The notes under the pieces were generated by a model that saw only the letters and a program-made list of their open reading frames with translations, had not been told where the DNA came from and searched no databases. Positions 4,996 through 43,767 of a stretch of 64,000 nt of DNA are shown piece after piece. Within the stretch, counting starts at the first letter, position 1. Each line of letters begins with the position of its first letter. The position numbers and the translations under genes were made by a program. Source of the stretch: a virus (lineage: Duplodnaviria > Heunggongvirae > Uroviricota > Caudoviricetes); the IMG/VR virus record IMGVR_UViG_3300021400_002728, positions 165,154 through 229,153 of that record; one strand, written 5' to 3'.

Positions 4996-6037
4996 TTAAT
5001 TTACCTCCTTCAAATTACTAATATAATTTTCAATATCTAAATTATTCCATAATTCTACAAAATTTAGACTTTGTCCATATTTTCGTTTTTCTGGATCAGA
5101 TTTAGTCCAAATATATATGGCATATTGATATTGTTTACTTGTTTTGGCTTTTTCTATCCAAGTATCTAATGTTTTCTTATCAGATTTATTATGACTATTA
5201 TAAGCATGTGAATTATGCATCCAATAACCATTTATCTCTACATAAGTATTAGATTTAACTAAATAGAAATCGCACATAAAATGGATATTCTTCAGATCTA
5301 TATTGACAATAATAATCTTGATCTTTTACATATCCTAATTCATTTAATTTAGACTCAAATAATGATTCTAACTTACTATGTTTAGGTTTACCTCTTAATG
5401 AATTAGCTCGTTTAATTTGAACTTCTTTAGTACCAATTTTCTTTTTAACTTCATCAGTATTAAGATTACATACTACTCCATATCTTTTAAGATTCGTAGA
5501 CTTTATCTTAGATATTATATCAGGATTCTGTGTAACATATTCAGTTCCATATTTAAATATATTAGTCTGTTTAATCTTAGTCTTTATAGATTCTGAAGCA
5601 TATACATTAGTAGTACCATATTTAGTAAGATTAGTTTGTTCTCTTTTATTATTTGATTCTTTACTATGAGCAGCCTTTATACCATTTTCATGTACTTTAG
5701 GTATTTTTAGAACAGAACTAACTCCATATCGTTCTAGACAAGTTTCTTTAACTTTAACTTGATTATTATAAGTGCTACTTCCATATCGAGCTAATTTAAC
5801 TTGTTTTATTTTATCTATATTATGATTATTAGAACATTTTGCTGAACAGCATTCTAAATAACCTTCAGATAATCCTCTAAATGAAGTTTTCTTTCCACAT
5901 ACTACACAAATACCTTCATTAGGTTTTTTCATATAACTATCGTAATATTCTTGTAAAGTAATCTTATGTACACGAATATGATGACTTAATTTTCGTATAG
6001 ACTCAAACTGAGTTTGACATATACTACAATTTATCAT
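4996..6037 (-). CDS. free-standing homing endonuclease (Zn finger, ERYG-type repeats, Vsr/PD-(D/E)xK-like C-terminus), frameshifted near 5280
   Basis: ORFs 5255-6037 and 4996-5277 join as ...SEEYPF/MCDFYL..YVEING.W.H if one T of a T-run is removed; N-terminus similar to 13169-14236. Confidence 0.7.
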
Positions 6038-6195
6038 TCATCTTCCTCCACCTTATCTTTTACGTTATCTTCTATTTTATTGCCATTTTTATCTAAATAG
6101 AATTTCTGTCCTTTTCCAGGACGTCCTACTACAAAAATATTTGGTGAGTTATTCACCATTTTATCTGATATAGGGTTCCACATAATTGTAGTCAT
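6034..6195 (-). pseudogene. displaced duplicate of the VirB4-like ATPase N-terminus
   Basis: MTTIMWNPISDKMVNNSPNIFVVGRPGKG aligns with MSTIKWSPTTAQMVNNAPGTIVVGSPGSG. Confidence 0.8.
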
Positions 6196-6219
6196 TTTTC
6201 TCCTCCATACAAACAAAAT

Positions 6220-6250
6220 AAAAGCTTCAGACGAATCTGAAGCTCATTTT
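6220..6250 (-). terminator. intrinsic terminator hairpin
   Basis: AGCTTCAGA..TCTGAAGCT inverted repeat followed by a T-rich tract on the minus strand. Confidence 0.6.
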
Positions 6251-6252
6251 AA

Positions 6253-6492
6253 TTACTGAAATTTAGTTAATGGTAAAAAGTTATTATAGCATGTAGGGCA
6301 TTCTCTATAACCCTTACCGTGTTCATTTGTATAACGTATAGACTCAAAGCTTTCTGAATACTTAATAGGCTGTCCGCAATGAATACAATTGATAATAGTA
6401 TCATTATCGTCTTTTACTGAAATATTCCAATCATTAGGAATATTTGCATCAGTATACTTTCCAGTAACGATATTATACCTATGAACAATCAT
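6253..6492 (-). CDS. small Zn-ribbon hypothetical protein
   Basis: CIHC...CPTC, RBS. Confidence 0.65.
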   Translation of the reverse strand: MIVHRYNIVTGKYTDANIPNDWNISVKDDNDTIINCIHCGQPIKYSESFESIRYTNEHGKGYRECPTCYNNFLPLTKFQ

Positions 6493-6506
6493 TGTTAACT
6501 TCCTCC

Positions 6507-6776
6507 TTAGTAATATCTTTCAATAACTTCAGGCTTAGTTGTAACCATCTCATCATCAGAATAATTAAATTTCTTCTTGAGATACTCAACTATCTTATAT
6601 CCATCACGTGACTTAGAACGATAACCATGCATATTTTTATTCTCAGCTATGTCGAAAAACTGTTCAATAAAATCTGAAAGTTCTTCAGTTGCTTTAGTAG
6701 TCATGATTGTTACAGTTGTGCATACATTTCCATATGCGTCGTCTCTAAGCGTTAAAGTTAATGTTTTCATTTTCAT
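6507..6776 (-). CDS. hypothetical protein
   Basis: ORF with RBS, in operon. Confidence 0.65.
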   Translation of the reverse strand: MKMKTLTLTLRDDAYGNVCTTVTIMTTKATEELSDFIEQFFDIAENKNMHGYRSKSRDGYKIVEYLKKKFNYSDDEMVTTKPEVIERYY

Positions 6777-6794
6777 AATTTCCTTTCTTATTTG

Positions 6795-7046
6795 TTATTT
6801 GCCTTCGTTTGCATATATCCAAGCTTCATGACCATGGTATTCCCAAATCATGATCTTTTCAATACCATTTTCGATCTCAATATCATACTTTTCAAAATTT
6901 TCAGCTTCTTCACCAGTATCTTCGGCAATCCACTGTTCCTTCATAGTTATCTGTTTATCTGTACGTTCTACTACCTTATATCGAATATCACCACCATATA
7001 GCATGGTACCTCTATAGATTTTACCTATTTCAAATTTATTTTCCAT
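6795..7046 (-). CDS. hypothetical protein
   Basis: ORF with RBS, in operon. Confidence 0.65.
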   Translation of the reverse strand: MENKFEIGKIYRGTMLYGGDIRYKVVERTDKQITMKEQWIAEDTGEEAENFEKYDIEIENGIEKIMIWEYHGHEAWIYANEGK

Positions 7047-7048
7047 AA

Positions 7049-8194
7049 CTATTCTCCTTCACATGATTCAAACTTTACATATTTGTTAAGTTTAGATGCT
7101 TTAATTGCATCAGGTGAAAGAATACTGTTAATCATCCAACTAACAGACTCTCGATCTTCATACTTTTCGAAGTACTTAATCATTCTGTCAGTAACATCAT
7201 TAAACTTACTAAAGAAATCACAAGTCTTCTTCTCAGCATCATTCATATCTTCATAATCTACATATACGTTGTCATATGAATCATTTTCGCCAACTAATAC
7301 ATGAAAAATTATGAATCCTTCTACACAATCATCTCTAGGACTAGTCTTATACACAAATGATAATAAGTTCTGCATCTTTTCTTCTTTGAGCATAACAATG
7401 TTAAGCGGCATGAAACTTAAATTATTTTCATCACATATAAGTTTAGGTATATCATAAATTAAATCAAGAACAATTTGTTCAGAAATATCAGTTTGATAAT
7501 ATGGAAACAAATACATCATAGGTTGATTATATATTCCACGATAATCTTGATCTTCACCAAGTTGTTTGATAGTCATTGCAAACATAGTAGTGACTTCACC
7601 ATTACGTTCTACATAATAAATACAACCAAACTGCATCCAAAATATAATATTCTCTCTAGCAGCCTCTTCAGAATCAAGTACATTATTCTTTTTAAGATAC
7701 CTAATAAGATACTCTGTAATCTTATCTAGATCATCCCATGTTGCGTATTTAAGTATATATGTACTCTTAATACCAATAGTCTTCTTGGACTTCCTGGTAG
7801 TCCTAGGAGTTATCAGGATTGATCTGTTATATTCATCATAAGTTAATAATCTATGACGCTGACAGTAATCCATAACCTGAATATATGAATTCAAATAGTC
7901 TTCTATCTGAGTTCTATACTTAGGCTTAATATACTTAATATAATCCATACTATAGAGCTTATCATCTTTAGTTTCATTACAGTCTTTACATAATGGAATT
8001 AAGTTAATGAACTGATTAGATCCACCTTTATTAAGCGGAATAAAATGATCGACGGTCATTTGATAACCTGCATAAATAGGTGTACCACAATGAGCACACT
8101 TATTGTCAGATTTTGCACAAATATCTTCTTTCTCATCGATAGTAAATTGTTCTCGATTATAATATTTTTGTTGTGTTAATTTTCCTTCCATCAT
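7049..8194 (-). CDS. HNH endonuclease domain protein (N-terminal McrA-like HNH) with unknown C-terminal region
   Basis: CAHCG...TVDHFIPLNKGGSN..NLIPLCKDCN. Confidence 0.8.
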   Translation of the reverse strand: MMEGKLTQQKYYNREQFTIDEKEDICAKSDNKCAHCGTPIYAGYQMTVDHFIPLNKGGSNQFINLIPLCKDCNETKDDKLYSMDYIKYIKPKYRTQIEDYLNSYIQVMDYCQRHRLLTYDEYNRSILITPRTTRKSKKTIGIKSTYILKYATWDDLDKITEYLIRYLKKNNVLDSEEAARENIIFWMQFGCIYYVERNGEVTTMFAMTIKQLGEDQDYRGIYNQPMMYLFPYYQTDISEQIVLDLIYDIPKLICDENNLSFMPLNIVMLKEEKMQNLLSFVYKTSPRDDCVEGFIIFHVLVGENDSYDNVYVDYEDMNDAEKKTCDFFSKFNDVTDRMIKYFEKYEDRESVSWMINSILSPDAIKASKLNKYVKFESCEGE

Positions 8195-8415
8195 ACCTCC
8201 TTATAGGTTTACGTCTATGACCAATAAAAGGAGATTCTTACTCATGAAACCAATCTTCTAATGCAGTTGTTTTTCCTGCTAGAAGATCATAAGCAGATTC
8301 CGGTGTTTTATCTGTAAGTATAGCAACCGCTGAAATAATTCCAGCAATAACAAATGTAACAATACAAGTAGAAACAAATGAATATATCATTATTCATATC
8401 CTCCTTATATTTTTT

Positions 8416-8447
8416 ATTATATCAAGAAGAATGGTAATTGTAAATAG
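8416..8447 (-). promoter_or_regulatory. sigmaA-type promoter with extended -10
   Basis: CTATTTACA-N17-TATAAT, TG upstream of -10. Confidence 0.75.
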
Positions 8448-8493
8448 TTATATCTACTTATATTATTAAATAGTCTATACTAAATATTTACAA

Positions 8494-8757
8494 TCAATCT
8501 CTAGTTGCAAGTGCCCAGAAACAAGATCTGGTATTGTTATACTTAATCTTTAGACCTAATCCTTCAAACCAAGATCTGATATGGGCATGCACATCATCTT
8601 CAAGATTTATAATGTATGAATCAATATAACGACTATACTGCTTTTTGAGTTTAATGTCTACTACACCATTCATATCAGGTTGGAATACAAACTCAAATAT
8701 AGCATCGCTATACTCATTATTGAGCTCATCAAGTATTTCCTGTGTGATCTCTTTCAT
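8494..8757 (-). CDS. hypothetical protein
   Basis: ORF with GGAGG RBS. Confidence 0.65.
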   Translation of the reverse strand: MKEITQEILDELNNEYSDAIFEFVFQPDMNGVVDIKLKKQYSRYIDSYIINLEDDVHAHIRSWFEGLGLKIKYNNTRSCFWALATRD

Positions 8758-8767
8758 ATTTTACCTC

Positions 8768-9187
8768 CTACTCAATTGATGTTTCTATATAAGATACCTT
8801 CTTACCACAAATAGGGCAAAAGGTATAACTTAATTTATCAGGAATATCATCGTCAGTTAGCTCATATCTATTATTGTCGCATTTTCTATATAAGATCTTC
8901 TTATTTTCAGATTTTCTCAGAACTGCTGTATAATAACAAAATTCACTTACTGAATCTAGTTCGTTTTCTACAATAGGTTCCTCTATAATAGTTTCTTCTA
9001 CTGTAGGTTCTTTATTTTCTTCATATTCCTTAACTGGTTTTTCAAAATTAGATACATCAGTATCTTCAGTATCAAACAGTGCAGTATTAACTTGTGATTT
9101 GTCCCATTTATCTCTATAATAAGAATCTGATATCTTATTACCAAACTTAACTATATTCTTTTTTGCTTTTTCTATTAAAGATTCCAT
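8768..9187 (-). CDS. hypothetical protein with C-terminal Zn ribbon
   Basis: FCPICGKK. Confidence 0.65.
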   Translation of the reverse strand: MESLIEKAKKNIVKFGNKISDSYYRDKWDKSQVNTALFDTEDTDVSNFEKPVKEYEENKEPTVEETIIEEPIVENELDSVSEFCYYTAVLRKSENKKILYRKCDNNRYELTDDDIPDKLSYTFCPICGKKVSYIETSIE

Positions 9188-9246
9188 ACCCTTTATTACC
9201 TTTATAACTAGTCTAACTATTGTTCAAAACTATAATTTACTTCTAT

Positions 9247-9765
9247 TTATTCCAATGACTTTAAATAATTATTCAATTCAGAAATAAGTTTCCAACCTTC
9301 AAAAGCTTCAGGTTGTGAGCTAGTAGTAAAAGAACAAAAAATATTATTATCATATAAATGAGTATGTAATTTACTGATAAAATCTATAACTTCAGGTATT
9401 TCTGCATTATCTATAGATTCTCCAGCAGTATGATGTGAATTATCTGGATCATTTTCACCAAAGTTAAAATCAACATCTGTGTCATATTCTGCATGTATTC
9501 CATCATCATTACAATCTATTTGTATATAAACATAATATGTATCTATATATCCTGGTGGTTCATGTTCGGTATCTTCAAGAAGTATTTCAGTTGTAAAATT
9601 ATACGGAGAACCTTCTACTTTTATAGTATGTTTAAGATCACTGCGCCAGATTGTTTGACAAAACTGATTTGTACCAGATGTATTATGTGAGTGATCAGTA
9701 CCATTATATTTTTTACAAATATCATAAATATTTTTATATATTTCTTTTATTTGTGCAATTGTCAT
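9247..9765 (-). CDS. hypothetical protein
   Basis: ORF with GGAGG RBS. Confidence 0.65.
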   Translation of the reverse strand: MTIAQIKEIYKNIYDICKKYNGTDHSHNTSGTNQFCQTIWRSDLKHTIKVEGSPYNFTTEILLEDTEHEPPGYIDTYYVYIQIDCNDDGIHAEYDTDVDFNFGENDPDNSHHTAGESIDNAEIPEVIDFISKLHTHLYDNNIFCSFTTSSQPEAFEGWKLISELNNYLKSLE

Positions 9766-9767
9766 TA

Positions 9768-10019
9768 TTAGACCTCCTTTATTATCTTAAACGAGCCGTC
9801 TTTTTCATTAAATTTTGCTTTATACTGTTTATCTACTTGATATAGATTAGAATCTTCATCATACTCATATAGTATTTTAGAATTTTCAGGTTCTACAAAA
9901 CTAAATTGATACTCACAAGTAGATTTATTTCTACCATCGTCATCTATACCATAGATCATATTTTTAACTGTACATTTAATTATACAGTCTATAATATATT
10001 TTTTCTTAAAAAATAACAT
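9768..10019 (-). CDS. hypothetical protein
   Basis: ORF with RBS. Confidence 0.6.
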   Translation of the reverse strand: MLFFKKKYIIDCIIKCTVKNMIYGIDDDGRNKSTCEYQFSFVEPENSKILYEYDEDSNLYQVDKQYKAKFNEKDGSFKIIKEV

Positions 10020-10040
10020 AATTTCCCTCCAATATAATAT

Positions 10041-10613: not shown

Positions 10614-10727
10614 TTAGTATTAAAATTTATTTGAATATTTCTTAATTTCTAATAAACTGTTATATGCACTTTTTGTGATCTGACTTTAATGTTCTTTCTA
10701 AATCATATCTTATAAATAAGTACCGCC

Positions 10728-11234: not shown

Positions 11235-11245
11235 AATACACCTCC

Positions 11246-12360: not shown

Positions 12361-12364
12361 CCTT

Positions 12365-13129
12365 TTATGTACTAAGAATACGTTTAGCTAAATTATCTAT
12401 ACTACCTAAATAATTAGTTACTATTCTAGAATAATCTACAAGCATCTCTGGATCATATTTATCTGGTCTAGCCCAAACTATTCTCTCTACAATACTTTTT
12501 CCAATATCTTTACCATAAGGTTCAGTAGTATCTTCATTATAACTAAAGCATATCATTAAATTATGTATATATTCTTTAGGATTATAATCTATACAAGTTT
12601 TTGGCGCATATTTAACTATCCATTTAGTAGTATTACCATCCTGATAATAATCATCTAAATATTTATTCCAATATTTGCTGTTCCAATCAAATATCCAAAC
12701 TAAGTTATATCCAGCATGTAAATAAAAAGATGTTCTATTAAAAAATTCTTCTGAAGACATTGGACTATGTTGAAATTCTACTACAAAATTCTTATAGCAA
12801 ATATCTGCTATATGTGTCTCTTTAGTCATATCACCTATATAATCTGGATCATTAGGATATAATTCTGCCCAAGTTTTAGTGATTATAACTTCTCTATACT
12901 CTTTAGGAAATAATGACTGACAATACCTATGCCATTCACTCATTTCATTATCATAGTCATCAACACAATCGCTATTAGTTAAATGTGAAAAATATGGAAT
13001 TTTTACATCTCCAGCTTTAAGAATAACTTTTTCTCCACAACATGGACATATATAAGATTTATTTCTACCATACTTATATAAAGCATCATCTGCATATACA
13101 ATTTGGTTATCTAATATAGCTACTTGCAA
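12365..13129 (-). CDS. CoiA-like nuclease
   Basis: CPCCGEKVILKAG..KIPYFSH, HIADI, VEFQHSPMS, GY..VWIFD. Confidence 0.8.
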   Translation of the reverse strand: MQVAILDNQIVYADDALYKYGRNKSYICPCCGEKVILKAGDVKIPYFSHLTNSDCVDDYDNEMSEWHRYCQSLFPKEYREVIITKTWAELYPNDPDYIGDMTKETHIADICYKNFVVEFQHSPMSSEEFFNRTSFYLHAGYNLVWIFDWNSKYWNKYLDDYYQDGNTTKWIVKYAPKTCIDYNPKEYIHNLMICFSYNEDTTEPYGKDIGKSIVERIVWARPDKYDPEMLVDYSRIVTNYLGSIDNLAKRILST

Positions 13130-13168: not shown

Positions 13169-14236
13169 TTAATCTTTTGTTTTAACTAAAGTATCAGCAC
13201 TTAATGGATTGTTCTGGACTAACTCTCCAGCACCATATATAGTATAGTTATTATCTTTATAAATAACTTCAGCCTTAGGAATAGTATTAGTTAAGTTGTT
13301 TTTATTAAAATCATCTTTAGGATAATTATCTGTTCCTAAAATTAGATCTTTTAATAACTGTTTTTGCTCTTCAAAATCTTCAAATTCATATATATGAATA
13401 AGTCGAATACATTTGTCTCTACAAAGTAAAGACTTATTTAGATGATAATCTTTTGGTGCACCCAGTTCAATACTATGCCATCTTGTCCCATTATATTCAA
13501 TACCTATTTTAAGGTCAGGTAAATAAATATCAATTTCTTTAGGTGAAATTACTGATTTACAATCATGTTTTATAGTTCCACTATAAATAGACTGAACAAA
13601 TCTCAATAATTCCATTTCTTTATGAGATCGATTATTATGAATAGTTTCCTCAATATATGTTTCAATTTTAGGAATATCTGAGATATAATAGTAATTAGTA
13701 TATCGTCCACCCTGCAACATTTTTACTGGTTTTATTATATTATCCCAATACCACATCCAGCCATACTTTTCAGTAAGTTGTTCTTTAGTAATTAGCTCTG
13801 GATGCTCAGCAATAAAATTATCTTTTATTTTATATTTAGTCTGTGCAGACTTTATACCAACTTTTTTAGCAATTTCTTTTCTTTTTAATGGATGATCTAC
13901 TCCAAATTTAGCTAATCGATCTTGTTTAATTCTTTCTTTTATTTCTTCAGATTGATATGGATTTTCTACTCCGTATTTTTCAAGATTTGTAGCTTTAAGT
14001 TTTTCTTGAACCTTTGGATCCAATGTGCTACATCTGACTGAACAGTGCCTACGATAACCACCTTTAGTAAGACCTTTGAAACTTGTAGGTTTTCCGCAAT
14101 ACTGACAAAACTCTTCACCTTCAGTTTTTAAGTAAGTATCATAATAGTCTTTTGTAGATAATTTATGTATAAATCTAAGGTGATTCCTAAATTTACCAGT
14201 ATTATCTGTCTCAAAATCACATATAGCACATTTCAT
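13169..14236 (-). CDS. free-standing homing endonuclease (Zn finger + Hef/Vsr-like nuclease) fused to a duplicate of the upstream gene's tail
   Basis: EIDIYLPDLKIGIEYNGTRWHS, IRLIHIYE; ends GELVQNNPLSADTLVKTKD. Confidence 0.8.
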   Translation of the reverse strand: MKCAICDFETDNTGKFRNHLRFIHKLSTKDYYDTYLKTEGEEFCQYCGKPTSFKGLTKGGYRRHCSVRCSTLDPKVQEKLKATNLEKYGVENPYQSEEIKERIKQDRLAKFGVDHPLKRKEIAKKVGIKSAQTKYKIKDNFIAEHPELITKEQLTEKYGWMWYWDNIIKPVKMLQGGRYTNYYYISDIPKIETYIEETIHNNRSHKEMELLRFVQSIYSGTIKHDCKSVISPKEIDIYLPDLKIGIEYNGTRWHSIELGAPKDYHLNKSLLCRDKCIRLIHIYEFEDFEEQKQLLKDLILGTDNYPKDDFNKNNLTNTIPKAEVIYKDNNYTIYGAGELVQNNPLSADTLVKTKD

Positions 14237-14250: not shown

Positions 14251-15273
14251 TCAATCTTTTACTTCTACTAAAGTATCAATGCTTAGAGGATTATTTTGAA
14301 TAATTATGTCAATAGGTAAGATTTTGAAGTAATCTCTATCTTTTCCCCTGACCCACACCGTGCATGCGACTTTCACCGCACACGGCGCTCCATCAAGGTT
14401 TAATTATTCTCGAGTTACGATTAAACCATTGACTTGTGTCCATTCCTACTACTCTTATTACAAGAGTTATCCACAGTTCGAACACTACTTTTCATCATTA
14501 CTAAAGAAGCTTATTATTCTTCGTCTTCACCATAAAAATATGTATAATGACTTTCCTTGTTCCATAAGATATTATCCGTACATATTAGTTTAGGTGCCTA
14601 TTATAAATATTACTAGCTAGATATAACCCGCCACATATAATGTTTCGTTATATAAGGAATTTCATAGTCCGGAATTTTACTTTTCCTCACTAATAATATT
14701 CTTCGATCATAGGTTCGTCTTACTATATTACTCACCTTGCTAATTTTATGGACGACCGGATTACTAACAACCCGACTTTAGCGAGCTTCATACATAACTC
14801 TTTACAAATTATGCATGTCGCAGTCTCATCGCTATATATTCAGAGCGTTACCTCTTCATTTATATAGTCATATCTTATAGTTCTTATACTATCATAAGGT
14901 CAATCTTTTCAATTGACAACAAGTCGCACCCGGGCAAGACTGTAGCATCATTCCTTTGAGTACAAAGTATACAATGAATGCCAGCACTTCGACCTAATTG
15001 AGTTATCGATTGGATATTACTAATTATTTCATCTTTAAGCGCGTCTTCAGCTTTACCTTCAGTAGTTTTAATACCAGATTTACCGGTCAACTCCGCAATC
15101 TCATCGACGACTATGAGTAGACGTGGCATTTCATCTGTATAGCATTTATCAACACAATTCTTATTGACTGGAATCCAATGTTCACCATCTAATTGAATTT
15201 CAAGCTCAGGTAGTTGAACTTCTACTTTAGCTTTAGCGGCTGAACCGCTATCTTGATGATCGAACCAACCCAT
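14251..15273 (-). CDS. FtsK/SpoIIIE-like ATPase middle fragment, two exons (14930-15273 and 14251-14305); 132 aa spliced
   Basis: MPRLLIVVDEIAEL Walker B, LGRSAGIH..LCTQR; splicing gives ...ATVLPGIIQNNPLSIDTLVEVKD*; no Walker A. Confidence 0.75.
14306..14929 (-). mobile_element. ORF-less group II intron (624 nt)
   Basis: 5' GTGCG; domain V GAGCGCCGTGTGCGGTGAAAGTCGCATGCACGGTGTG; ends ...TTACCTATTGACAT; shares GTAACTCGAGAA with the first intron; removal restores frame. Confidence 0.9.
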
Positions 15274-15277: not shown

Positions 15278-16108
15278 TCACTCCTTTCTTAATAAGTCAG
15301 TAAATCTATTTTTCATTTCCTGTGTAAATCTATCAAGTATTGCTAATAAGTCAGGATAAGGTGAAAGTCTATTTCTTACTTCCTGAACCATTTCTTTTGG
15401 AATAGGATAATAAGCTTCTGCCATACTTCCAGCAATACAAGTTAATGTATCGCAGTCTCCACCTAAAGAAACTGCATTTCTAATAACATCTTCAAAATCT
15501 GTACCTTCAAAGAAAGCTGTCATAGCTTGAGGTACGGTTTCTTGACAGGACTCAACATGATGATAGTCAGGTCTAATTTCATCACAAGTCTTAGATAAGT
15601 CATAACCAAAACAGTCATGAACATACTTTTTGATGAATGTTTTATCATAACCTGTTCTAGCTAAAAAAATAACTGCAGCAACTGATTCTGCACCTTTGAT
15701 ACCTTCTGGATGATTATGTGTTACTTCAGCAGTAAGTCTAGCAATATCTCTAGTTTCTTTTACTGAATTGTATAACCATCCTGCAGATGAAACTCTCATA
15801 GCTGAACCATTACCAAAACTATTATATGGTTTTGGATCATTAGATTTAAGCCACCAAGAGAATCTTGTTCCGTAGCCTTCCCAGGGATAAAGTTCGCCAT
15901 ATTTTTTCATAGACTTAATAACAGCTTCTTTAATATCCTCTGGTGACGCATGGAGCGTATCTAGGAGTGCTTCTGCAACAGCTAGAGTCATAACAGTATC
16001 ATCAGTTTTTCTGCTTGAGTCTATCCAAAATGGAAAATCTTTTCGTTTTTCACTTCTATCATATTCATATGGTGCGCCAACCATATCACCTAAAATTGCT
16101 CCGTACAT
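15278..16108 (-). CDS. ADP-ribosylglycohydrolase (DraG/ARH family)
   Basis: GAILGD, TDDT, SFGNGSAMR, THNHPEG, GGDCDT motifs. Confidence 0.9.
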   Translation of the reverse strand: MYGAILGDMVGAPYEYDRSEKRKDFPFWIDSSRKTDDTVMTLAVAEALLDTLHASPEDIKEAVIKSMKKYGELYPWEGYGTRFSWWLKSNDPKPYNSFGNGSAMRVSSAGWLYNSVKETRDIARLTAEVTHNHPEGIKGAESVAAVIFLARTGYDKTFIKKYVHDCFGYDLSKTCDEIRPDYHHVESCQETVPQAMTAFFEGTDFEDVIRNAVSLGGDCDTLTCIAGSMAEAYYPIPKEMVQEVRNRLSPYPDLLAILDRFTQEMKNRFTDLLRKE

Positions 16109-16198
16109 ATATTCACCTTCTTTTAATAAACAAAAAATGCCTGTCATTTTTCAGACAGGCATAATTTCAGCTCTACCTACACAAGGACAGGAGAGTAA

Positions 16199-16471
16199 TT
16201 AGATATTAGTCCAATGGTCACCTTCAAACTGAATCTGACCAAGTACATCTGTCTCAGTAAACTTAACACCATCAGATGTACCGATAACTACAGTTCCAAT
16301 ATTGCCTGAAATCTTAACTATAATAAAATAAGGCTCAGGATCATTTAGATCATAAATAAATGACTCCTTAGAAATGAATTTCTTTCTAGCCTCATCATAG
16401 TCAAACTCAATCGGATCAATATTGAGCTGATCAAAGTACTGTTTCATTACATCATTAATATTTGTATTCAT
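16199..16471 (-). CDS. hypothetical protein
   Basis: ORF with RBS. Confidence 0.65.
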   Translation of the reverse strand: MNTNINDVMKQYFDQLNIDPIEFDYDEARKKFISKESFIYDLNDPEPYFIIVKISGNIGTVVIGTSDGVKFTETDVLGQIQFEGDHWTNI

Positions 16472-19675: not shown

Positions 19676-19747
19676 CTATGTATAATTTACTAATTTACTG
19701 TCAAGTTTCTTTTTATCCGCAATTGATCCGTATAAACCTATGCAAAT
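19676..19747 (-). pseudogene. displaced duplicate of the RuvC-like gene C-terminus
   Basis: reads ICIGLYGSIADKKKLDSKLVNYT*, colinear with ICIALFAQKVDIELLNKHKVNYT* of 20717-21262. Confidence 0.8.
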
Positions 19748-20703
19748 TACATTTGTGTATTATAGTTATTTTTCTTTTTTGTTTGCCCTTTGTGATATCC
19801 GTTATTTATATAAGTATTTAATTCATCTAAATATATAAATTTATTAGTTATACCATTAGTTATACAAATTTTTCCATAGCATGGATTATTTTTTCCAGAA
19901 ACATTAGCGTGATTTTTAGATAATTTTTGTTTTGTTTCATCTGAAACTATTCTACCTTTATTAGCTATTGATATTTTTTGTCTAGCTTCTAATGATACTT
20001 CTAAACCTTTATGTGAATTAGACATTTTTTCTCTAGTTTTAATAGATGGATGCTTATTATAATTAGGATTGTTTTTGCCTAATTTAGATATAGACTGTTT
20101 ATATTTTGTTTCTTTTGAGTGTTTTCTGCCTTTTCCAGCTATTGATAATTTTTGTTTAGTTTCATCTGATAATGTCTTACCGCGCCGCCTAGTATTTCCT
20201 AATAATGATTTAGATATTTTACTTCTAGCTTCTTCAGACATATTTTTGCATGATTTAGATATTTTTTCCTTATGTTCTTTAGATAATTTTTTACCTTTAT
20301 TAGGACTAGGCAATCCTTTATGGCTTTCTGACATACACTTTAAAGTTTTTTCAGATAAATTTTCTTTTTTATGCGCCTCTGAGCAATGTTTTTTAGCTTC
20401 AGCCGAAAATTTACTACCTTTTCTATTACCACAACTGCCACCAATAGCTAAATTATAAAAATTATCTGAATTTACTGCATCATAATACGAAATCCAGTAT
20501 ATTTCTTGTTTATCTAATTGTTCTTGTGAATTACACCATTCAATAATATCTACTTTAAAATTTTCTTTTCCATATTTTTGTATAGCCTTTATTAGTAATT
20601 TACCAGATCCAAAATACTTTTTATCAAATATTTCTGATGCGTGCTGACCTATATATTGTTTATTATTAATTAGATTAGTTATTTTATAAATATATCCATA
20701 CAT
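19747..20703 (-). CDS. GIY-YIG homing endonuclease with NUMOD3-like repeats (Seg-like)
   Basis: YIYKITNLINNKQYIGQH, YFGSG, YNLAIGG, repeated (H)S.ETK.K(L/I)S. Confidence 0.9.
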   Translation of the reverse strand: MYGYIYKITNLINNKQYIGQHASEIFDKKYFGSGKLLIKAIQKYGKENFKVDIIEWCNSQEQLDKQEIYWISYYDAVNSDNFYNLAIGGSCGNRKGSKFSAEAKKHCSEAHKKENLSEKTLKCMSESHKGLPSPNKGKKLSKEHKEKISKSCKNMSEEARSKISKSLLGNTRRRGKTLSDETKQKLSIAGKGRKHSKETKYKQSISKLGKNNPNYNKHPSIKTREKMSNSHKGLEVSLEARQKISIANKGRIVSDETKQKLSKNHANVSGKNNPCYGKICITNGITNKFIYLDELNTYINNGYHKGQTKKKNNYNTQM

Positions 20704-20716: not shown

Positions 20717-21262
20717 TTATGTATAATTAACTTTATGCTTATTTAACAGTTCAATATCAACTTTTTGTGCGAATAATGCTATGCAAATTGCGTCTGCTGT
20801 ATCGTTATCTTTAATAATTTCATCACCCTTTTTAGGATGATGTATTACTATATTCAAATCTACTTGAGGATAGTTCTTTTCCACAAAAGCAACGGCATCT
20901 TCTTTCTTTGCTGATCTATTACCTAAAACTTTACTCTTCCATGACTGAACATGGACAGCACTGATTGAAATTTTATCAGAGAACTCATTTATTAGAGTTG
21001 ATTGTAAGAATGCCATACTAACAATATTGTACATTCTAGATACACCTCTATAGAATGCAATTTCCTCAAATAGCATGTAGTCATCTTTAGTTAATTTATA
21101 CTTCTTAATATACTCATTAATTTGTTTAATGATCTTCTTTCTATGATGCCAGGCTGATTCAGAATCACTATAGTTAAGTCTACTCCATTCAAGCAACTTA
21201 TCACCTTGCATGACACAGATAGAATTACGTGTTCTATTTCCTAAATCTATGCCTATTACCAT
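20717..21262 (-). CDS. RuvC-like Holliday junction resolvase
   Basis: VIGIDLG, FEE, WK..VLG, DxADAICIA. Confidence 0.75.
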   Translation of the reverse strand: MVIGIDLGNRTRNSICVMQGDKLLEWSRLNYSDSESAWHHRKKIIKQINEYIKKYKLTKDDYMLFEEIAFYRGVSRMYNIVSMAFLQSTLINEFSDKISISAVHVQSWKSKVLGNRSAKKEDAVAFVEKNYPQVDLNIVIHHPKKGDEIIKDNDTADAICIALFAQKVDIELLNKHKVNYT

Positions 21263-37329: not shown

Positions 37330-37339
37330 CACTTAATAT

Positions 37340-37795: not shown

Positions 37796-37831
37796 TTTTT
37801 AATCATCCTTACTTTTCATATTAAGCACATC

Positions 37832-38233: not shown

Positions 38234-38293
38234 AATTGTAACCTCCGTATTTTTATAAGTTTTGCTTAGTTAAGATTATCTATATTAATCTCC

Positions 38294-38512
38294 CTAAAAA
38301 TCATTTTCTATAAAGTTTTTGAATAGGTCTATAATGTCTCTAGAATTAGCAATAACTTTACGATCTTCATAACCATCCTCAGTACCAATATATGCCATAT
38401 AATTTCCATCTTCAAAATGTAAAGCTACTTTAATAACTGTATCAAGTTTAGCTTCAGGATCTACTTCATAATTTTCATGCCATCTTTCTTCTAATTTTTC
38501 TACAGGTACCAT
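38294..38512 (-). CDS. hypothetical protein
   Basis: ORF with GGAGG RBS. Confidence 0.6.
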   Translation of the reverse strand: MVPVEKLEERWHENYEVDPEAKLDTVIKVALHFEDGNYMAYIGTEDGYEDRKVIANSRDIIDLFKNFIENDF

Positions 38513-38522
38513 ATTATACCTC

Positions 38523-39224
38523 CTAATGATAATTTTCTACATTAGTTACTACGAATACATATTCTTTTTCATTACCAAATTTACCTTTATAAGTATATTG
38601 AGCAAGCATTGGATATTTTTCAGAAGGACCGCCGTATTCATTTACTATAAATACAGCTTTCTCATCATATACATTACTTATTGCCTGTCTAATAGTAACA
38701 GAATCTGGCATATAAGCAATTTCATCTGATACTTTACCAATTTCTCGTATACTCTTATGAACATTTGAGATTATATCATTTATTTTATCTTTTACTGTAC
38801 TTATAGTTGAGTTAGTTAACATAATTTCTCCACTATGTTTATCTAACCATGTAAATGATACATTATTAAGTTTAAGCTGTACAAAGATATATAATCTATC
38901 ATAATTTTCCTGTTTAGCATCAATAACTTCTGGTGCAAAATTTTTAGTATGACTCATTACAAAATCTTCTACTAATGATGGATCCCAATTACGTTCATTA
39001 CTGCCATAAATACTTACTACAATAGGAGTAGTTATAATAAGATCTCCTTCATAAGTATGTTTTTCAATATTCTTTTCATATTCAGCTTGTTTCTTCTTTT
39101 CTTCGGCTTCGCGGTTAGCTCTATAAGCAGCCTCTCGACCTTCATCAGTTATTTCACTTTTACCTATATCAAATGGATTACCACCAGCATGACTCATAGA
39201 CCAAATGGTAAAATAAGCTCCCAT
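38523..39224 (-). CDS. hypothetical protein
   Basis: ORF with GGAGG RBS. Confidence 0.65.
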   Translation of the reverse strand: MGAYFTIWSMSHAGGNPFDIGKSEITDEGREAAYRANREAEEKKKQAEYEKNIEKHTYEGDLIITTPIVVSIYGSNERNWDPSLVEDFVMSHTKNFAPEVIDAKQENYDRLYIFVQLKLNNVSFTWLDKHSGEIMLTNSTISTVKDKINDIISNVHKSIREIGKVSDEIAYMPDSVTIRQAISNVYDEKAVFIVNEYGGPSEKYPMLAQYTYKGKFGNEKEYVFVVTNVENYH

Positions 39225-39242
39225 AATAACCTCCTATCAGAT

Positions 39243-39305
39243 AAAATGACCTACCTCTTTCAAGATAAGTCATTTTTCACAATCCATACTATTATATATA
39301 AATAG
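39243..39305 (-). repeat. leader element copy 8
   Basis: matches consensus. Confidence 0.85.
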
Positions 39306-39308
39306 TTC

Positions 39309-39842
39309 TTAATAGCTAATGTTATCGTAAAAAACATCATCATCGATTTCTTCACCATAGACATGCTCAATTTCGATGATTTCTATCCAACCTTGATTAT
39401 GGAAAAGCTTTAATATATCATCTTTTACTTTATTTCTAGCTGGACATTCTTCTTTCTTAAGTGGAAATCCTGTGTAGTCAAATTCAAGCTCTGCTGGTTC
39501 TGGTGGAGAATATCTATCTCCTGGATATGCAGGTGATACTACATGAATATCAGCTGAAACATCAGCTGTAATAGTAATATCGTCATCATCGAAGTTATCT
39601 ACTTCAAAATCATCTGCATCTTCCATAAGTGAGCTGAGAATATCAAATACATCCTCTTCTACTTTATAGAAGTCACTTTCTAAAATTTCATTCACGCGTT
39701 CTTCAGTAACATCATCAGCCCATTTAAGAATGATTCTAATAGTTTGACGACCATGAGTAGTAGTTGGTCCATCATCATAATCGTCATATCTATCTGAGGA
39801 AGAACTATTAGTTTCAAATAATTTATTTCTAATCTTTAGCAT
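39309..39842 (-). CDS. FETNSSS-motif family protein
   Basis: MLKIRNKLFETNSSSS behind GGAGG. Confidence 0.75.
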   Translation of the reverse strand: MLKIRNKLFETNSSSSDRYDDYDDGPTTTHGRQTIRIILKWADDVTEERVNEILESDFYKVEEDVFDILSSLMEDADDFEVDNFDDDDITITADVSADIHVVSPAYPGDRYSPPEPAELEFDYTGFPLKKEECPARNKVKDDILKLFHNQGWIEIIEIEHVYGEEIDDDVFYDNISY

Positions 39843-39843
39843 G

Positions 39844-40230
39844 TTATTTACCTCCTTCAAAAATTGGTCTACCTAAGAATCCACCAAATTTAGTAAGTAC
39901 AACTACTTCATCTGTTGGTTCAAATGTTAGATTCTTTGTATTAACTGCTTTGCCTTCAGGTGAAATAGATAATGTTATATGTGGTACTGGAATAGCATTA
40001 TATAACTCTCTAAGTTCATCTGACTCGCATAATACTAACTGAACTTTATAGCCTTCGTTCACATTATCATTACCATATCCAGTAACAATAAACTTAGCCT
40101 CTTGACCATATAAATGTTCATGACTTACGGCAGGCTTATATTCAGTAGTTACATGCTTAAATTCAATATCTTTAGATAGTTTACTAGGTAATGTACCTTG
40201 TACAAAGAATGCTTCATATACTATATTCAT
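39844..40230 (-). CDS. 2H phosphoesterase family protein
   Basis: two HxT motifs: KHVT and PHITLS. Confidence 0.7.
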   Translation of the reverse strand: MNIVYEAFFVQGTLPSKLSKDIEFKHVTTEYKPAVSHEHLYGQEAKFIVTGYGNDNVNEGYKVQLVLCESDELRELYNAIPVPHITLSISPEGKAVNTKNLTFEPTDEVVVLTKFGGFLGRPIFEGGK

Positions 40231-40242
40231 AATAATTCTCCA

Positions 40243-40638
40243 TTAAGATTCTAATATTAATTCTAACTCTTCAAACATATTTGACCAGAAGTAATCTCCA
40301 TCATTATGATACCAGTCTTCGATAATTTTAAGCTCTTCATCAGTTAATTTTCTATTTGTAGTAACTTTTACATACCAATAACCCTCATTACCAAGACCCT
40401 CATCGTCATATATGTCATTGTCTCTAATATAATCTTCTTCTGATTCATAACCATCAAAGTCATTAGTTATTGCTATAATAGCGTCACTTAATGATTCTAC
40501 TATAGTATCATCAGATTTAAATGATTCAGTAACATCTTGATCTAATGTATTATACATAACATCTGATTTTTCTGCAAACTCACCTTTTGCGCCTTTAAGA
40601 TCAGATAACCATATTCTACCTGTGTAATTATATTCCAT
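40243..40638 (-). CDS. hypothetical acidic protein
   Basis: ORF with GGAGG RBS. Confidence 0.65.
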   Translation of the reverse strand: MEYNYTGRIWLSDLKGAKGEFAEKSDVMYNTLDQDVTESFKSDDTIVESLSDAIIAITNDFDGYESEEDYIRDNDIYDDEGLGNEGYWYVKVTTNRKLTDEELKIIEDWYHNDGDYFWSNMFEELELILES

Positions 40639-40692
40639 TTTTATTATACCTCCTAATTATCAACTAATAATTTAATATCACTAATACTATGC

Positions 40693-41103
40693 CTAAGCTA
40701 ATCCGTATTGTTCAAGATCATCTTCAGTAATGTCATTAATAGTATATCTGAACTCATTTTCGAGCTCAGCATAATGTTCCATAATGTAGAATATAATGTC
40801 ATTAGTAAGGTTATTCTTAGAATAACTACATACTACATTCATATTATACATATTAGTAATACCAGAATACTGAACTACAAGATAATCTTTCCACTGTTCC
40901 TTTGAAGGTTTATTGGTTACTTCTTCGTCTTCGTCAGAATTGAATACTAATACATAACCCTCATTTATGGCTTCAATAATATGTTCTTCAATAAACTTCT
41001 GAAGCTTAAAAATTTCATCATTTTCAGTCGGTAATAAACCTCTATTTCGTCTATTTTTAATAGAGAGTTCTCTATATCTTTTAATTGCATCTAAAATAGT
41101 CAT
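40693..41103 (-). CDS. hypothetical protein; C-terminal DUF5049-like motif
   Basis: VQYSGITNMYN. Confidence 0.6.
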   Translation of the reverse strand: MTILDAIKRYRELSIKNRRNRGLLPTENDEIFKLQKFIEEHIIEAINEGYVLVFNSDEDEEVTNKPSKEQWKDYLVVQYSGITNMYNMNVVCSYSKNNLTNDIIFYIMEHYAELENEFRYTINDITEDDLEQYGLA

Positions 41104-41111
41104 AATCTACC

Positions 41112-41414
41112 TCATTGTAAATTCTTTTCCCAGGCTACGTATACAATCCAATCAGAAGTTATAGATGTTATGACTAAGTCTTTTACATCCATATTCTTAA
41201 GTCTTATTTCAGGTACTCCACCTTGTATACCAACAAGATCTAATTCATCGTGAAGATCACAATAATCTTTGATTTTATCTACAAGATCTGTAAATCTGTT
41301 TGGTAAGTTCTGTACATCAAGTCTATCTCTTAAAACTGTATATGTGTCAGGAATAGAGTTTATACGTACTTCAAATGGAAAATCTACTACCTTTTGTAGA
41401 TCTCGTACTCTCAT
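41112..41414 (-). CDS. hypothetical protein
   Basis: ORF; likely start MRVRDL. Confidence 0.55.
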   Translation of the reverse strand: MRVRDLQKVVDFPFEVRINSIPDTYTVLRDRLDVQNLPNRFTDLVDKIKDYCDLHDELDLVGIQGGVPEIRLKNMDVKDLVITSITSDWIVYVAWEKNLQ

Positions 41415-41415
41415 A

Positions 41416-41649
41416 TTACCACTCATAGTATTCACCTTCCTCAAAAGCTAAAACTACTGATACATTTGAAGTATATCTAGACCAATAGAAATCCATCATA
41501 TTTTCAAACTCTTCTTTTGTATTAGCCTCGTAGAGTTTCTGTCCTTCTTTTTTGACAAATCCTAAACTAATTCTTTGTCTATTGATACCATTTTGATCTA
41601 AATAGTCTTCAAGTGTTCTTTTATCTATCAACCAAATTTGATAATCCAT
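41416..41649 (-). CDS. hypothetical protein
   Basis: ORF with GGAGG RBS. Confidence 0.65.
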   Translation of the reverse strand: MDYQIWLIDKRTLEDYLDQNGINRQRISLGFVKKEGQKLYEANTKEEFENMMDFYWSRYTSNVSVVLAFEEGEYYEW

Positions 41650-41673
41650 AGAAATACCTCCTTATATACAAAG

Positions 41674-41737
41674 AAAATGACCTGCCTCTAGTGAGACAAG
41701 TCATTTTTCACTTTCATACTATATTATAATTAAATAG
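41674..41737 (-). repeat. leader element copy 9
   Basis: matches consensus; G-U pairs on minus strand. Confidence 0.85.
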
Positions 41738-41762
41738 CACTTTACAATCAATACGAAAGTCT

Positions 41763-42878
41763 TTATTCATGTCCAGCTTTCTTTCTAACCTTGTGAAAGA
41801 TTGTATCGAATGTATCTCCAGGTTCAAGATCAAAAAGTTCAGTTTCCATAGACGAAATAGCGAACTTATTATTTTTCCAGTCATATCCACGATACCAACC
41901 TTCTTTAGAATATTTAGTTTCCCATTCTTCTAAAGATACGTATTTTGCACCAGTTTCATTATTTATTCTAATAAGTCCTTTATTTTTATTAGTATTTTTA
42001 TTTCCAGTGCCTTTAGTCCAACCTTGTGGTTCATATATAGTTATAAATTCTTCTTCTAAAACATATTTATAAGTTTTTCCATTATTTATTGCTATTTTAC
42101 CTCTAATATGACCACATTTTTCAGTATTACCTTTTAGTGTTTTTGAAATTTTAGCTTTACACTCTTTAGATAATTTTTTACCTTTATTACTTTTACTAAT
42201 ATTTTCATTCCATTCTTTATTATGTGGTAATGGTTTACCTAAATGTGCTTTTCTATTCTTTTCATTAGATTGTTTGTTTTTAGGTGGACCTTTAATTATT
42301 GCACCGGATTTAACTAATTTTTCTAATTCATTAGCTTTTACTAATTTATACTGATTATTATAATAAATCCAAGTTCTACCTAAATTTTGATGTAGTGTTT
42401 TACTTAAATTTTTAAACCGTTCTTTTTCTTTTTCAGAACAGACGTGTTTAGATCCAGTTAATCTTTTAGACATTAATTCAGAATTTATTTTACTTATTTG
42501 ATTTATTTCTTCTTTATTGTTAATAATAAAATCTTCTAAATTATATGTAATACCATTAGCTTTATGTTGTCCTAAAAATCTAATAACTGCAGTTGAATTT
42601 GCAAGTTTATATTTATTATTGTAACTACAAAAACACAAATATAAATGTGCTAAAATATGATCAGCTCTAGATAAATATACTAAATTATCTTCGGTATTAT
42701 CTAATTTTTTAGATATACTTTTATAATAATAGTTAGGAATGATATGATGTAAATCATATCCTCGTTGTTTAATATTAGATTTATTTTTGACAATTAGTTT
42801 CACATATTTAGATAAATATTTATTATTAATACATAATTTTAAGTCTAATAGTTTATTTTTCAGATCTTTCTGTGTCAT
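41763..42878 (-). CDS. HNH (Mob-like) homing endonuclease fused to a duplicate of the radical SAM C-terminus
   Basis: HHIIP...DNLVYLS..DH.LAH.YL; NUMOD-like repeats; ends FAISSMETELF...DTIFHKVRKKAGHE. Confidence 0.8.
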   Translation of the reverse strand: MTQKDLKNKLLDLKLCINNKYLSKYVKLIVKNKSNIKQRGYDLHHIIPNYYYKSISKKLDNTEDNLVYLSRADHILAHLYLCFCSYNNKYKLANSTAVIRFLGQHKANGITYNLEDFIINNKEEINQISKINSELMSKRLTGSKHVCSEKEKERFKNLSKTLHQNLGRTWIYYNNQYKLVKANELEKLVKSGAIIKGPPKNKQSNEKNRKAHLGKPLPHNKEWNENISKSNKGKKLSKECKAKISKTLKGNTEKCGHIRGKIAINNGKTYKYVLEEEFITIYEPQGWTKGTGNKNTNKNKGLIRINNETGAKYVSLEEWETKYSKEGWYRGYDWKNNKFAISSMETELFDLEPGDTFDTIFHKVRKKAGHE

Positions 42879-43767
42879 GACCTGCTACCTCTCGCACATG
42901 CTTAAACATGGAGTCCAAAGTATCATTTTCTTTAATTGGAAAAATATTTTCAGTTTCCATTGAACTAATTGCATAAGTATTATCAATTAAATTTACAAAA
43001 AATGTATATTGTCCTTCGGCACCCATATTATGAAGTGCCCATTTCTCGGGACCAACCTTCTCTTCCATATGAAGATCTATAGTAGCAAGTGTGTCAAATC
43101 CAATACCATTGAATCTATCCTTGTTTTCCATAAGATGTTTATCAAGGTAATCGATGTTGGCATCTACTTCATCTTTATGCTTTTCATAGTACTCAACACC
43201 ACGACCCTTATGTTTGAATCCTAGCATAAGAAGCTTAAGATTATGATCTGCCATATTCTCAAGATCTTCTTTGGTGAAGCATCCATCAATAACATGAACT
43301 ACTACATTCTTGAGACCGTTCTCCCAAAGAATAGAATCTGACGAATTAGTAAGAGAAACACCAATGCCCCATACTAACTGTCTATTCTGCCAATCTTTAA
43401 GAGTCTCAACATTATCCTTAAGATGTTTCTGGTTGATTGTAATGTTTACAAATACACCTTTTTCTTTCATCTTAATAAGGAATGCTTCAAGTCCAGGATG
43501 AGTCATATCATTTGCATTGATTGCCATCTCTGTACCAGGATGTACAGTGTCAAAGATCGGATTAGTGAGATCTGCATGAGGCTTATCCATATTGCAGTTC
43601 AAATAACAGTATTCACAACCACCATTACACTTTTCTGTGATTGTGACATCCATACTTTCTGCAAAATCTGGAGTAAGATTGTCAAGGTCATTCATACGAA
43701 TCTTTGTGCCGTCATCAAAAAGACGAACAGTATAATTTCCATTTTTATATTTAGCAAGAAGCTTCAT
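42853..43767 (-). CDS. radical SAM enzyme
   Basis: CNGGCEYC (CxxxCxxC), ESMDVTIT. Confidence 0.85.
   Translation of the reverse strand: MKLLAKYKNGNYTVRLFDDGTKIRMNDLDNLTPDFAESMDVTITEKCNGGCEYCYLNCNMDKPHADLTNPIFDTVHPGTEMAINANDMTHPGLEAFLIKMKEKGVFVNITINQKHLKDNVETLKDWQNRQLVWGIGVSLTNSSDSILWENGLKNVVVHVIDGCFTKEDLENMADHNLKLLMLGFKHKGRGVEYYEKHKDEVDANIDYLDKHLMENKDRFNGIGFDTLATIDLHMEEKVGPEKWALHNMGAEGQYTFFVNLIDNTYAISSMETENIFPIKENDTLDSMFKHVREVAGHDTERSEK

Follow-up and report, generated by a model that had tools for sequence, protein, structure and literature searches.

Displaced gene ends beside free-standing homing endonuclease genes in a jumbo phage genome: probable footprints of end-replacement homing

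In fungal mitochondria, free-standing homing endonuclease genes (HEGs), or 'mobile open reading frames (ORFs)', carry a duplicated gene C-terminus, as at atp6 of Allomyces; the in-frame replacement C-terminus arrives with the endonuclease ORF, and the original is left downstream. The enzymes of these mobile ORFs are mostly LAGLIDADG or GIY-YIG proteins, and their host is an organelle, unlike the phage described in this report. In yeasts of the genera Torulaspora and Lachancea, the WHO system at FBA1 consists of a free-standing endonuclease gene just downstream of an essential gene; homing swaps the 3' end of that gene for the donor's linked resistant allele, and the old 3' end is pushed beyond the endonuclease gene (Coughlan et al. 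2020, PMC7282813). The displaced FBA1 fragments share a start position and decay, the full-length FBA1 is chimeric with a sharp identity break, and the displaced fragment has been proposed to act as a second homology arm (PMC7282813). Here we analyse a stretch of 64,000 nucleotides (nt), hereafter the window, from a virus of the Caudoviricetes (G000:C1:165154-229153; the parent IMG/VR record, G000, has 394,266 bp with direct terminal repeats). G000 is a jumbo phage genome (394 kb); the window has a G+C content of about 30%, and nearly all its genes lie on the minus strand. At four HEGs of the window, (a) to (d), one end of the adjoining gene occurs twice, as the 'in-use' end of the full-length gene and as an 'orphan', the displaced gene end beyond the nuclease gene. 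We conclude that these duplicates are probably footprints of end-replacement homing by free-standing HEGs. For (c) and (d), comparison with nuclease-free alleles shows that a donor tail entered a resident backbone along with the nuclease gene, and that the resident tail was kept.

The comparators were G001 (332 kb, syntenic with the window at 70-93% nt identity), G002 (290 kb), G003 (467 kb), L061 (a 66.5-kb Logan contig, the closest relative across the window region) and several further ENA and Logan contigs, found via protein homologues. When phage GenBank records were searched for near-identity to 25 kb of the window, the only matches were to group II domain V, in two jumbo phages. Each orphan was locally aligned to its in-use terminus and compared with 5000 shuffles of the orphan. 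The identities are 18/34 for (a), 12/17 for (b), 10/23 for (c) and 19/37 for (d), all pairs being found on the minus strand at the positions listed below. Every pair reaches a shuffle p<=2e-4, which speaks against chance similarity. A metagenome assembly chimera that joined two strain alleles in tandem could be suspected, as G000 is a metagenome assembly and both the frameshift in (a) and the fusion in (d) rest on single-base homopolymer lengths; however, assemblies made independently from other samples (G001, L063, L068, L069 and L084) show these architectures again, and the copies are too diverged for collapsed strain alleles. We give chance or chimera almost no credence.

According to PHROGs and Pfam, the nucleases belong to DUF7487/phrog_3339 (twice, a and b), GIY-YIG with NUMOD3 (c) and HNH (d), which confirms the three unrelated families of the original prediction. 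That prediction also took these four to be all the free-standing HEGs of the window; the four pairs are real, but a CoiA-like nuclease gene and part of a fifth DUF7487 gene lie in the window as well. The HNH protein matches phrog_655 and phrog_12434, and phrog_3339 is annotated 'homing endonuclease'; in sequence searches of the PDB, neither the HNH nor the DUF7487 proteins had a match. At all four loci and at the NrdD locus described below, the HEG either overlaps its neighbouring gene or is separated from it by 0-15 nt.

The clearest case, (d), is an HNH gene beside a radical-SAM gene, with these features:
42853..43767, minus strand, radical-SAM-like (Fe-S oxidoreductase) gene, the last ~130-135 nt donor-derived
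41871..42878, minus strand, native part of the HNH homing endonuclease gene; relatives stop here, at ...YDWKK
41763..41870, minus strand, displaced radical-SAM tail, in frame with the nuclease via a shortened A-run at 41865-41882

The 241-kb contig L067 carries the radical-SAM gene without an HNH gene after it. Against L067, the in-use gene of G000 has a nt identity of 0.91-1.00 over ~740 nt and then of 0.87, 0.60 and 0.42, and the spacer downstream of the orphan is near-identical. The displaced copy had been expected to match the allele that lacks the nuclease, and at this locus it does so decisively, the G000 orphan being identical to the L067 tail at 106/108 nt. Since both the gene body and the orphan match L067, G000 is an L067-like backbone that received ~135 nt of foreign tail together with the HNH gene; seven resident codons were lost between the left crossover and the start of the orphan. 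Three natural radical-SAM proteins (P0255-P0257), one of which sits in L067, end in the exact peptide of the G000 orphan, and all 14 HNH homologues end natively at ...YDWKK, ~35 residues before the G000 stop. The contigs L068 (HNH 97% identical) and L069 (60%) have the in-use tail type of G000 and a different orphan in each, that of L068 being the tail of the natural allele P0258. A common in-use tail with differing orphans indicates that the tail travels with the nuclease and that the orphan is the recipient's own. The A-run in G000 is one base shorter than in the 97%-identical relative, which causes the in-frame fusion; in that relative the nuclease keeps its native end, and the orphan forms a small ORF of its own. 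The first Ser codon of the AISSMETE motif is AGY in all three nuclease-linked alleles and TCN in all four nuclease-free alleles, and it is TCN also in the G000 and L068 orphans. This synonymous difference is of the kind that would be expected for target immunity, and it is the one signal in favour of the putative cleavage-resistant recoding of the original prediction. An IMG/VR scan with the HNH protein found no relatives. The fall of G000-G001 identity along the radical-SAM gene was considered as a long co-conversion gradient and rejected, because L067 shows a sharp break and the rest is lineage divergence.

Case (c), a GIY-YIG gene beside a RuvC gene, comprises:
20717..21262, minus strand, RuvC-like resolvase gene, its last 62 nt (20717-20778) being the replacement tail
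20779..20789, minus strand, left copy of the 11-bp direct repeat AATTTGCATAG, which bounds the insert
19747..20703, minus strand, GIY-YIG/NUMOD3 homing endonuclease gene
19676..19748, minus strand, displaced RuvC tail, starting with the right repeat copy (19738-19748) and out of frame with the nuclease

Only two copies of the repeat exist in the window, with 0.15 expected by chance, and both lie at the bounds of the insert. Compared with nuclease-free tails, the orphan agrees with G001 at 63/72 nt and with L061 at 59/72 nt; the in-use tail agrees with L061 at 39/72 nt and only weakly with G001. The match of the displaced copy to the allele without nuclease is therefore clear here too, with the insert flanked by the 11-bp repeat. 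In G001 and L061 the next gene comes directly after RuvC, with no GIY-YIG gene between; in L061 this is a gene of 77 amino acids that is also present in G000. The RuvC tail of G003, which is without the GIY-YIG nuclease, is nearer to the orphan type. Along RuvC, G000 and G001 are 85-100% identical as far as the ICI motif, past which identity drops to 35%. Six independently assembled contigs carry exactly this GIY-YIG protein with its neighbours unchanged, and the architecture is thus no assembly artefact. With this protein, the IMG/VR scan gave distant relatives only, at most 56% identical over a fragment, and a single scan of metagenome contigs gave relatives at most 45% identical, the top match having 36%; the RuvC alignment recovered no further genomes.

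Case (a) differs in that the duplicated terminus is a 5' end, that of an ATPase gene:
6034..6195, minus strand, orphan ORF of 53 codons that copies the ATPase 5' end, decayed and without intron; stop codon overlapping the nuclease start (ATGA)
4996..6037, minus strand, DUF7487/phrog_3339 gene (HEG-a), broken into ORFs 5255-6037 and 4996-5277
4973..4992, minus strand, ATPase exon 1, 20 nt
4310..4972, minus strand, ORF-less group II intron A, 663 nt (RF00029 57 bits, RF02004 52 bits; GTGTG start, AT end)
3163..4309, minus strand, ATPase exon 2 (AAA_10/VirB4-like)

The frameshift of HEG-a is due to one extra T in a T-run. The spliced ATPase product matches the intronless genes of G002, G003 and L061. 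In G002 and G003 there is no orphan, nuclease or intron, and the ATPase starts are of the in-use type. Orthologous orphans stand at the same position in three lineages (G000, G001 and L061), and what lies between orphan and ATPase varies: in G000, HEG-a and then intron A after codon 7; in G001, a nuclease of another subfamily and then an intron 12 codons further downstream (72% to intron B); in L061, neither nuclease nor intron, only a spacer of ~45 nt, the end of which resembles the 3' end of the G001 nuclease gene. Between G000 and G001 the orphans show 19 non-synonymous and three synonymous differences, whereas the in-use copies differ synonymously only. The orphan, unlike the in-use copy, retains the upstream ribosome-binding context of G002. 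The change of identity along the ATPase gene is a mild gradient only. A search of 1.84 billion representatives with the orphan gave two small-ORF homologues and low-complexity matches, and no full-length ATPase with an orphan-type start. The orphan predates the split of the three lineages, one of which is now nuclease-free. We read the locus as an old 5'-end replacement, after which nucleases replaced one another between two homology arms, formed by the orphan and the body of the ATPase gene, and then decayed (the G000 frameshift) or were lost (L061).

The arrangement in L061, where orphan (a) and the intact ATPase stand in tandem ~45 nt apart with no HEG, is also what would be seen if the gene-end copies had come first, by slippage or unequal recombination, and HEGs had later entered the dispensable spacer. 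At (a) the copies may conceivably have come first, but as a general explanation we regard this order of events as very improbable. The L061 spacer ends in sequence resembling a HEG 3' end, and divergence between the copies is strong (45-70% nt). Only one copy is present at the empty sites of G001, L061 and L067, and such duplications cluster at HEGs across the genome. In (d), moreover, one copy is foreign to the backbone and the other 98% identical to it, so that no resident DNA was duplicated.

Case (b) is a second DUF7487 gene, beside an FtsK-like gene:
14930..15273, minus strand, FtsK/SpoIIIE-like gene, exon 1
14306..14929, minus strand, ORF-less group II intron B, 624 nt (RF02004 93 bits, RF00029 60 bits)
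14251..14305, minus strand, FtsK-like exon 2 (55 nt), the in-use tail, of the canonical type in nearly all natural alleles
13169..14236, minus strand, DUF7487/phrog_3339 gene (HEG-b), its last ~17 codons (13169-13222) being the displaced FtsK-like tail
12365-13129, CoiA-like nuclease gene (CoiA_N + CoiA_nuc), directly after HEG-b

The displaced tail is fused to HEG-b after the native ...GAGKL end, the native C-terminus of the family being ...GAGKLY. In ~120 cluster representatives the functional FtsK-like tails are near-invariant and of the in-use type, and no orphan-type tail was found among these natural alleles. The nuclease-free genes of G002 and L061 share 42-44 of 51-54 nt with the in-use tail, but only 34 nt with the orphan. 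Within the HEG-b family, an FtsK-tail fragment occurs at the same junction in 9/120 representatives, variously decayed, and the orphan-bearing relatives of HEG-b are only 40-88% identical. The architecture is repeated at loci L062, L063 and L065. At the four orphan-bearing FtsK loci the in-use gene is interrupted 0-24 nt from the breakpoint, whereas nuclease-free genes are uninterrupted; the interruption is a group II intron between LPG and II (G000, L063) or one site upstream (L062, site 2), or a mini-intein (L065). In G000 the orphan starts within ~6 nt of the insertion site of intron B. In G001 an HEG of 525 amino acids lies directly after the FtsK-like gene.

Some further observations concern the FtsK-like gene and its surroundings. 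The mini-intein (L065:2553-3401), of ~150 amino acids, lies between ...NDAA and SVLPG... in the same 25-codon stretch, in a gene with no intron; ~43 of the ~120 representatives are interrupted at one of at least four sites in this stretch. The N-termini of FtsK-like proteins form two classes (window 14930-15273; L016:604-1896; L062, L071, L072), and a DUF7487 HEG lies immediately upstream at 4/4 loci of the MGWM(L/M)ND class and at 0/6 of the WFD.QD class. The G001 HEG upstream of the FtsK-like gene begins MGWFD, with five residues of the other class, which suggests 5'-end replacement there too. An ADP-ribosylglycohydrolase gene and a gene of 90 amino acids stand in reversed order in G000 (window 15278-16471) and G001 (95018-96156), L061 having the G001 order; this is a local rearrangement by the HEG hotspot.

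How frequent such duplicates are was estimated over the whole 394-kb genome by comparing all stop-to-stop frames with each other (cut-offs: at most 75 amino acids, at least 29 bits, within 3.5 kb). Only 13 short local duplications passed, which makes them rare; (a), (b) and (d) are among them, and 4/13 fall in the tRNA region and resemble translated tRNA genes. A 69-amino-acid 'duplication' at 253-256 kb of G000 was discarded because it consists of two complete paralogues that no HEG separates. A count seeded with the nucleases of the window gave 13 clear nuclease genes in G000, with a terminal duplicate at five of them; to call this the main homing mode, as was done from four of four, was an overstatement. 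The fifth case lies outside the window, where a DUF7487 gene (G000 324603-325505) is fused to a copy of the NrdD C-terminus. At this locus (G000:C1:324603-326608; L045) a C-terminal NrdD gene of 370 amino acids is followed by the HEG, whose last ~37 residues copy the NrdD tail at 62% identity, an arrangement common to G001; the NrdD gene of G002 is nuclease-free with a shorter tail, and a LAGLIDADG-like ORF lies upstream in the NrdD region. The presence of HEGs at the same site is sporadic among close relatives: the GIY-YIG gene is absent from G001, G003 and L061, the HNH gene from G001, G002, G003 and L067, HEG-a from G002, G003 and L061, and HEG-b from G002 and L061.

Other nuclease-like genes occur in the window. 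The CoiA-like gene, present in G000, G003 and L065 and not in G001, G002 or L061, may be another mobile nuclease within the HEG-b island. An ORF of 622 amino acids at 63406-64000, cut by the end of the window (on to G000:230427), has N-terminal DUF7487-type repeats, and its C-terminal part resembles a DNA methyltransferase (DPCSGWG and GFDIN motifs). A protein of 381 amino acids with an N-terminal HNH domain (7049-8194) is encoded at the same position in G000, G001, G002 and L061 and is probably the product of a resident gene, not of a mobile HEG.

Several observations weigh against end replacement. At (a) and (b) the displaced copy does not match the HEG-free allele: G002, G003 and L061 agree with the in-use ATPase end, and G002 and L061 with the in-use FtsK-like tail. 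These mismatches arise likely because the events are old and the orphans have decayed, and polarity at both loci would follow from decay and topology. L061 carries orphan (a) without any HEG, which we read as loss of the HEG because of the HEG-like end of its spacer. The flank downstream of orphan (b) resembles L065 and not the empty site in L061; this orphan was thus probably imported with the HEG island and not left by G000's own gene, and it is likely an old relic that moves with the nuclease cassette. The in-use tail type of (d) is also present in the HEG-free G002 and G003; it is a natural allele class, with no purpose-made recoding. Genome-wide, 8/13 HEGs have no terminal duplicate, and the cleavage activity and cut sites of the nucleases are putative.

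Some of these points would be explained by fragment carry-over, in which the orphan is a fossil of the HEG's previous host gene, the in-use end is resident, and the HEG landed outside an intact gene. HEG-free relatives matching the in-use end in (a) and (b), the constant junction of orphan (b) in HEGs only 40-88% identical, and its downstream flank, common to L065 and not to the L061 empty site, all agree with this explanation. Nevertheless, we consider it unlikely. It is excluded for (d), where orphan and spacer are contiguous and ~98% identical to the HEG-free backbone and the in-use tail is foreign, and for (c), where the HEG-free G001 and L061 have the orphan-type tail. In (a) it is the orphan, not the in-use copy, that holds the native upstream context, and the first origin of such fossils would itself need an end-replacement event. 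The original prediction, that the HEG brings a replacement terminus and that the displaced copy is the old resident end, is therefore shown at (d) and well supported at (c), but in its original form fails at (a) and (b), by the refuting condition that it had set itself. Under end replacement, (c) and (d) are likely recent events in the G000 lineage, and (a) and (b) old ones, with orphans inherited or travelling with the HEG cassette.

End-replacement homing could proceed as follows. The HEG adjoins a conserved gene and would be genetically linked to a terminus allele of its own. When phages with and without the HEG infect one cell, the enzyme would cut the HEG-free allele near the gene end, by the start of the later orphan, and repair would copy the donor terminus together with the HEG. 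On the gene side, the crossover may arise by homologous invasion; on the far side, the join would fall at or inside the recipient's own terminus, through microhomology or an orphan, and this terminus would survive as the new orphan. The linked allele would be immune to the enzyme. Indirect signs of such selective cutting may be the AGY and TCN Ser codons of linked and free alleles and the seven resident codons missing at the (d) junction. The fate of the orphan differs between loci: in (b), (d) and NrdD it extends the HEG reading frame as a tail, in (c) it is out of frame, and in (a) it forms a small ORF upstream, coupled to the start of the HEG. Freed from selection on the host gene, it would decay, and it may act as the far-side homology arm in later homing or HEG turnover, as proposed for WHO.

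The original prediction held that no splicing is needed. This is incorrect at (a) and (b), whose in-use copies are each interrupted by a group II intron. Both pairs are real (18/34 and 12/17), but the working ATPase start exists only after removal of the 663-nt intron, and the FtsK-like tail copied at the end of HEG-b is a 55-nt second exon behind the 624-nt intron. Introns A and B score above the gathering thresholds of both Rfam RF00029 and RF02004 and have the features of group II introns (5' GUGYG, domains V/VI, 3' AY and a frame-restoring exon junction), and joining the exons at their splice sites gives exactly the intronless genes of G001, G002 and L061. Neither intron contains an ORF, hence there is no intron-encoded maturase, and no reverse transcriptase (RVT_1) match was found anywhere in the G000 genome. 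Group II introns were searched for genome-wide in G000, G001, G002 and G003 and at three further loci. All those found, in G000 (two), G001 (one), G003 (three), L062 and L063, lie in a gene that directly abuts a DUF7487 HEG, and the last or only intron is within ~60-170 nt of the HEG, except in L062 (intron at site 2). In (a) and (b) the introns lie 0-66 nt from the duplication breakpoint.

The introns are also related to one another. In G003, the FtsK-like gene (L044:4521-6405; G003:C1:149520-151404) has three ORF-less group II introns of 640, 557 and 620 nt, parted by exons of 44 and 24 nt, so that all three fall in a coding stretch of 70 nt; the third occupies the site of intron B, and downstream come a DUF7487 HEG and a CoiA-like gene. 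Identity among the six related introns is 54-78%, and the G001 ATPase intron (G001:105253-105889) is closest to the FtsK-gene introns, with 72% to B. The ATPase and FtsK intron sites both end in CC(C/A)GG before the 5' splice site, which hints at intron movement between genes via exon-binding pairing.

Collaborative homing by an ORF-less intron and a neighbouring free-standing HEG has been described for cyanophage psbA, the DNA polymerase of T3/T7-like phages and the ICP1 terminase (PMC10448857). The intron and neighbouring HEG in (a) and (b) fit collaborative mobility or target-site shielding. That the HEG would cut the intronless allele at the insertion site, and the intron protect its carrier, is hinted at by the (b) breakpoint close to the site of intron B and by the interruption of all four orphan-bearing FtsK loci, in contrast to the HEG-free ones. 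The nuclease family (CapR-like plus EDxHD/Vsr-like) has been reported inside phage group II introns (Merk, Jones and Eddy 2025, PMC12350094), and the EDxHD enzyme I-Bth0305I is described as cutting beside the insertion site of its intron (PMC3239194). DNA-level co-mobility of intron and neighbouring nuclease is a plausible reading of these arrangements. As a tentative step further, free-standing DUF7487 HEGs might be what moves ORF-less group II introns, and in one relative a mini-intein, as DNA, with the intron protecting its carrier by splitting the target site of the enzyme. If true, this would amount to reverse-transcriptase-free collaborative homing of group II introns, and would explain both the three introns within 70 nt of one gene and the orphans that start at intron sites.

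These natural before/after alleles show that phage HEGs can enter the ends of essential genes with neither intron nor intein, by supplying a terminus in place of the old one; until now this route has been documented for yeast nuclei and fungal mitochondria. In jumbo phages it would account for small orphan ORFs, for unusual C-terminal extensions of annotated HEGs and for gene ends with extreme local divergence. The start of an orphan may serve as a pointer, available from sequence only, to the likely cleavage site, and the loci supply candidate matched pairs of sensitive and resistant targets for four uncharacterised nucleases. The intron association renders DNA-level mobility of group II introns directly testable.

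Among known phage systems, the G000 loci resemble the seg and mob genes of T4, which are free-standing HEGs by conserved phage genes, with co-conversion of flanks and sporadic distribution (PMC2988022). Unlike the G000 loci, the T4 cases have homology on both sides, which leads to clean replacement, and the review of T4 intronless homing nowhere mentions duplication or retained gene fragments (PMC2988022). In a literature search, which was incomplete, gene-end fragments retained beside HEGs were found for yeast and for fungal and algal organelles, and none for phages. As in collaborative homing, the ORF-less intron in (a) and (b) adjoins the free-standing HEG, within 60 nt, and does not enclose it; the cited cases, however, involve group I introns, whereas those here are group II introns in a genome without reverse transcriptase. 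The study of phage group II introns (PMC12350094) concerns, by its description, the same HEG family (~60-amino-acid repeats plus a Vsr-like nuclease; Pfam DUF7487) and the same kind of host, jumbo phages of Bacillota-like bacteria. The HEG there is inside the intron, whereas here it is outside, adjoining the intron, and accompanied by displaced gene termini; the word 'collaborative' is absent from that text. The closest analogue is WHO, each listed trait of which is reproduced by (c) and (d). The host here is a bacteriophage and not a meiotic diploid, and cleavage and resistance, read from the sequence, are putative. In contrast to the intein-derived LAGLIDADG enzymes of WHO, three unrelated families (HNH, GIY-YIG and DUF7487/EDxHD-like) are involved. 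Two loci have group II introns, or an intein, in the in-use copy, the orphans are often part of the HEG ORF, and in (a) the arrangement appears in a 5'-end version.

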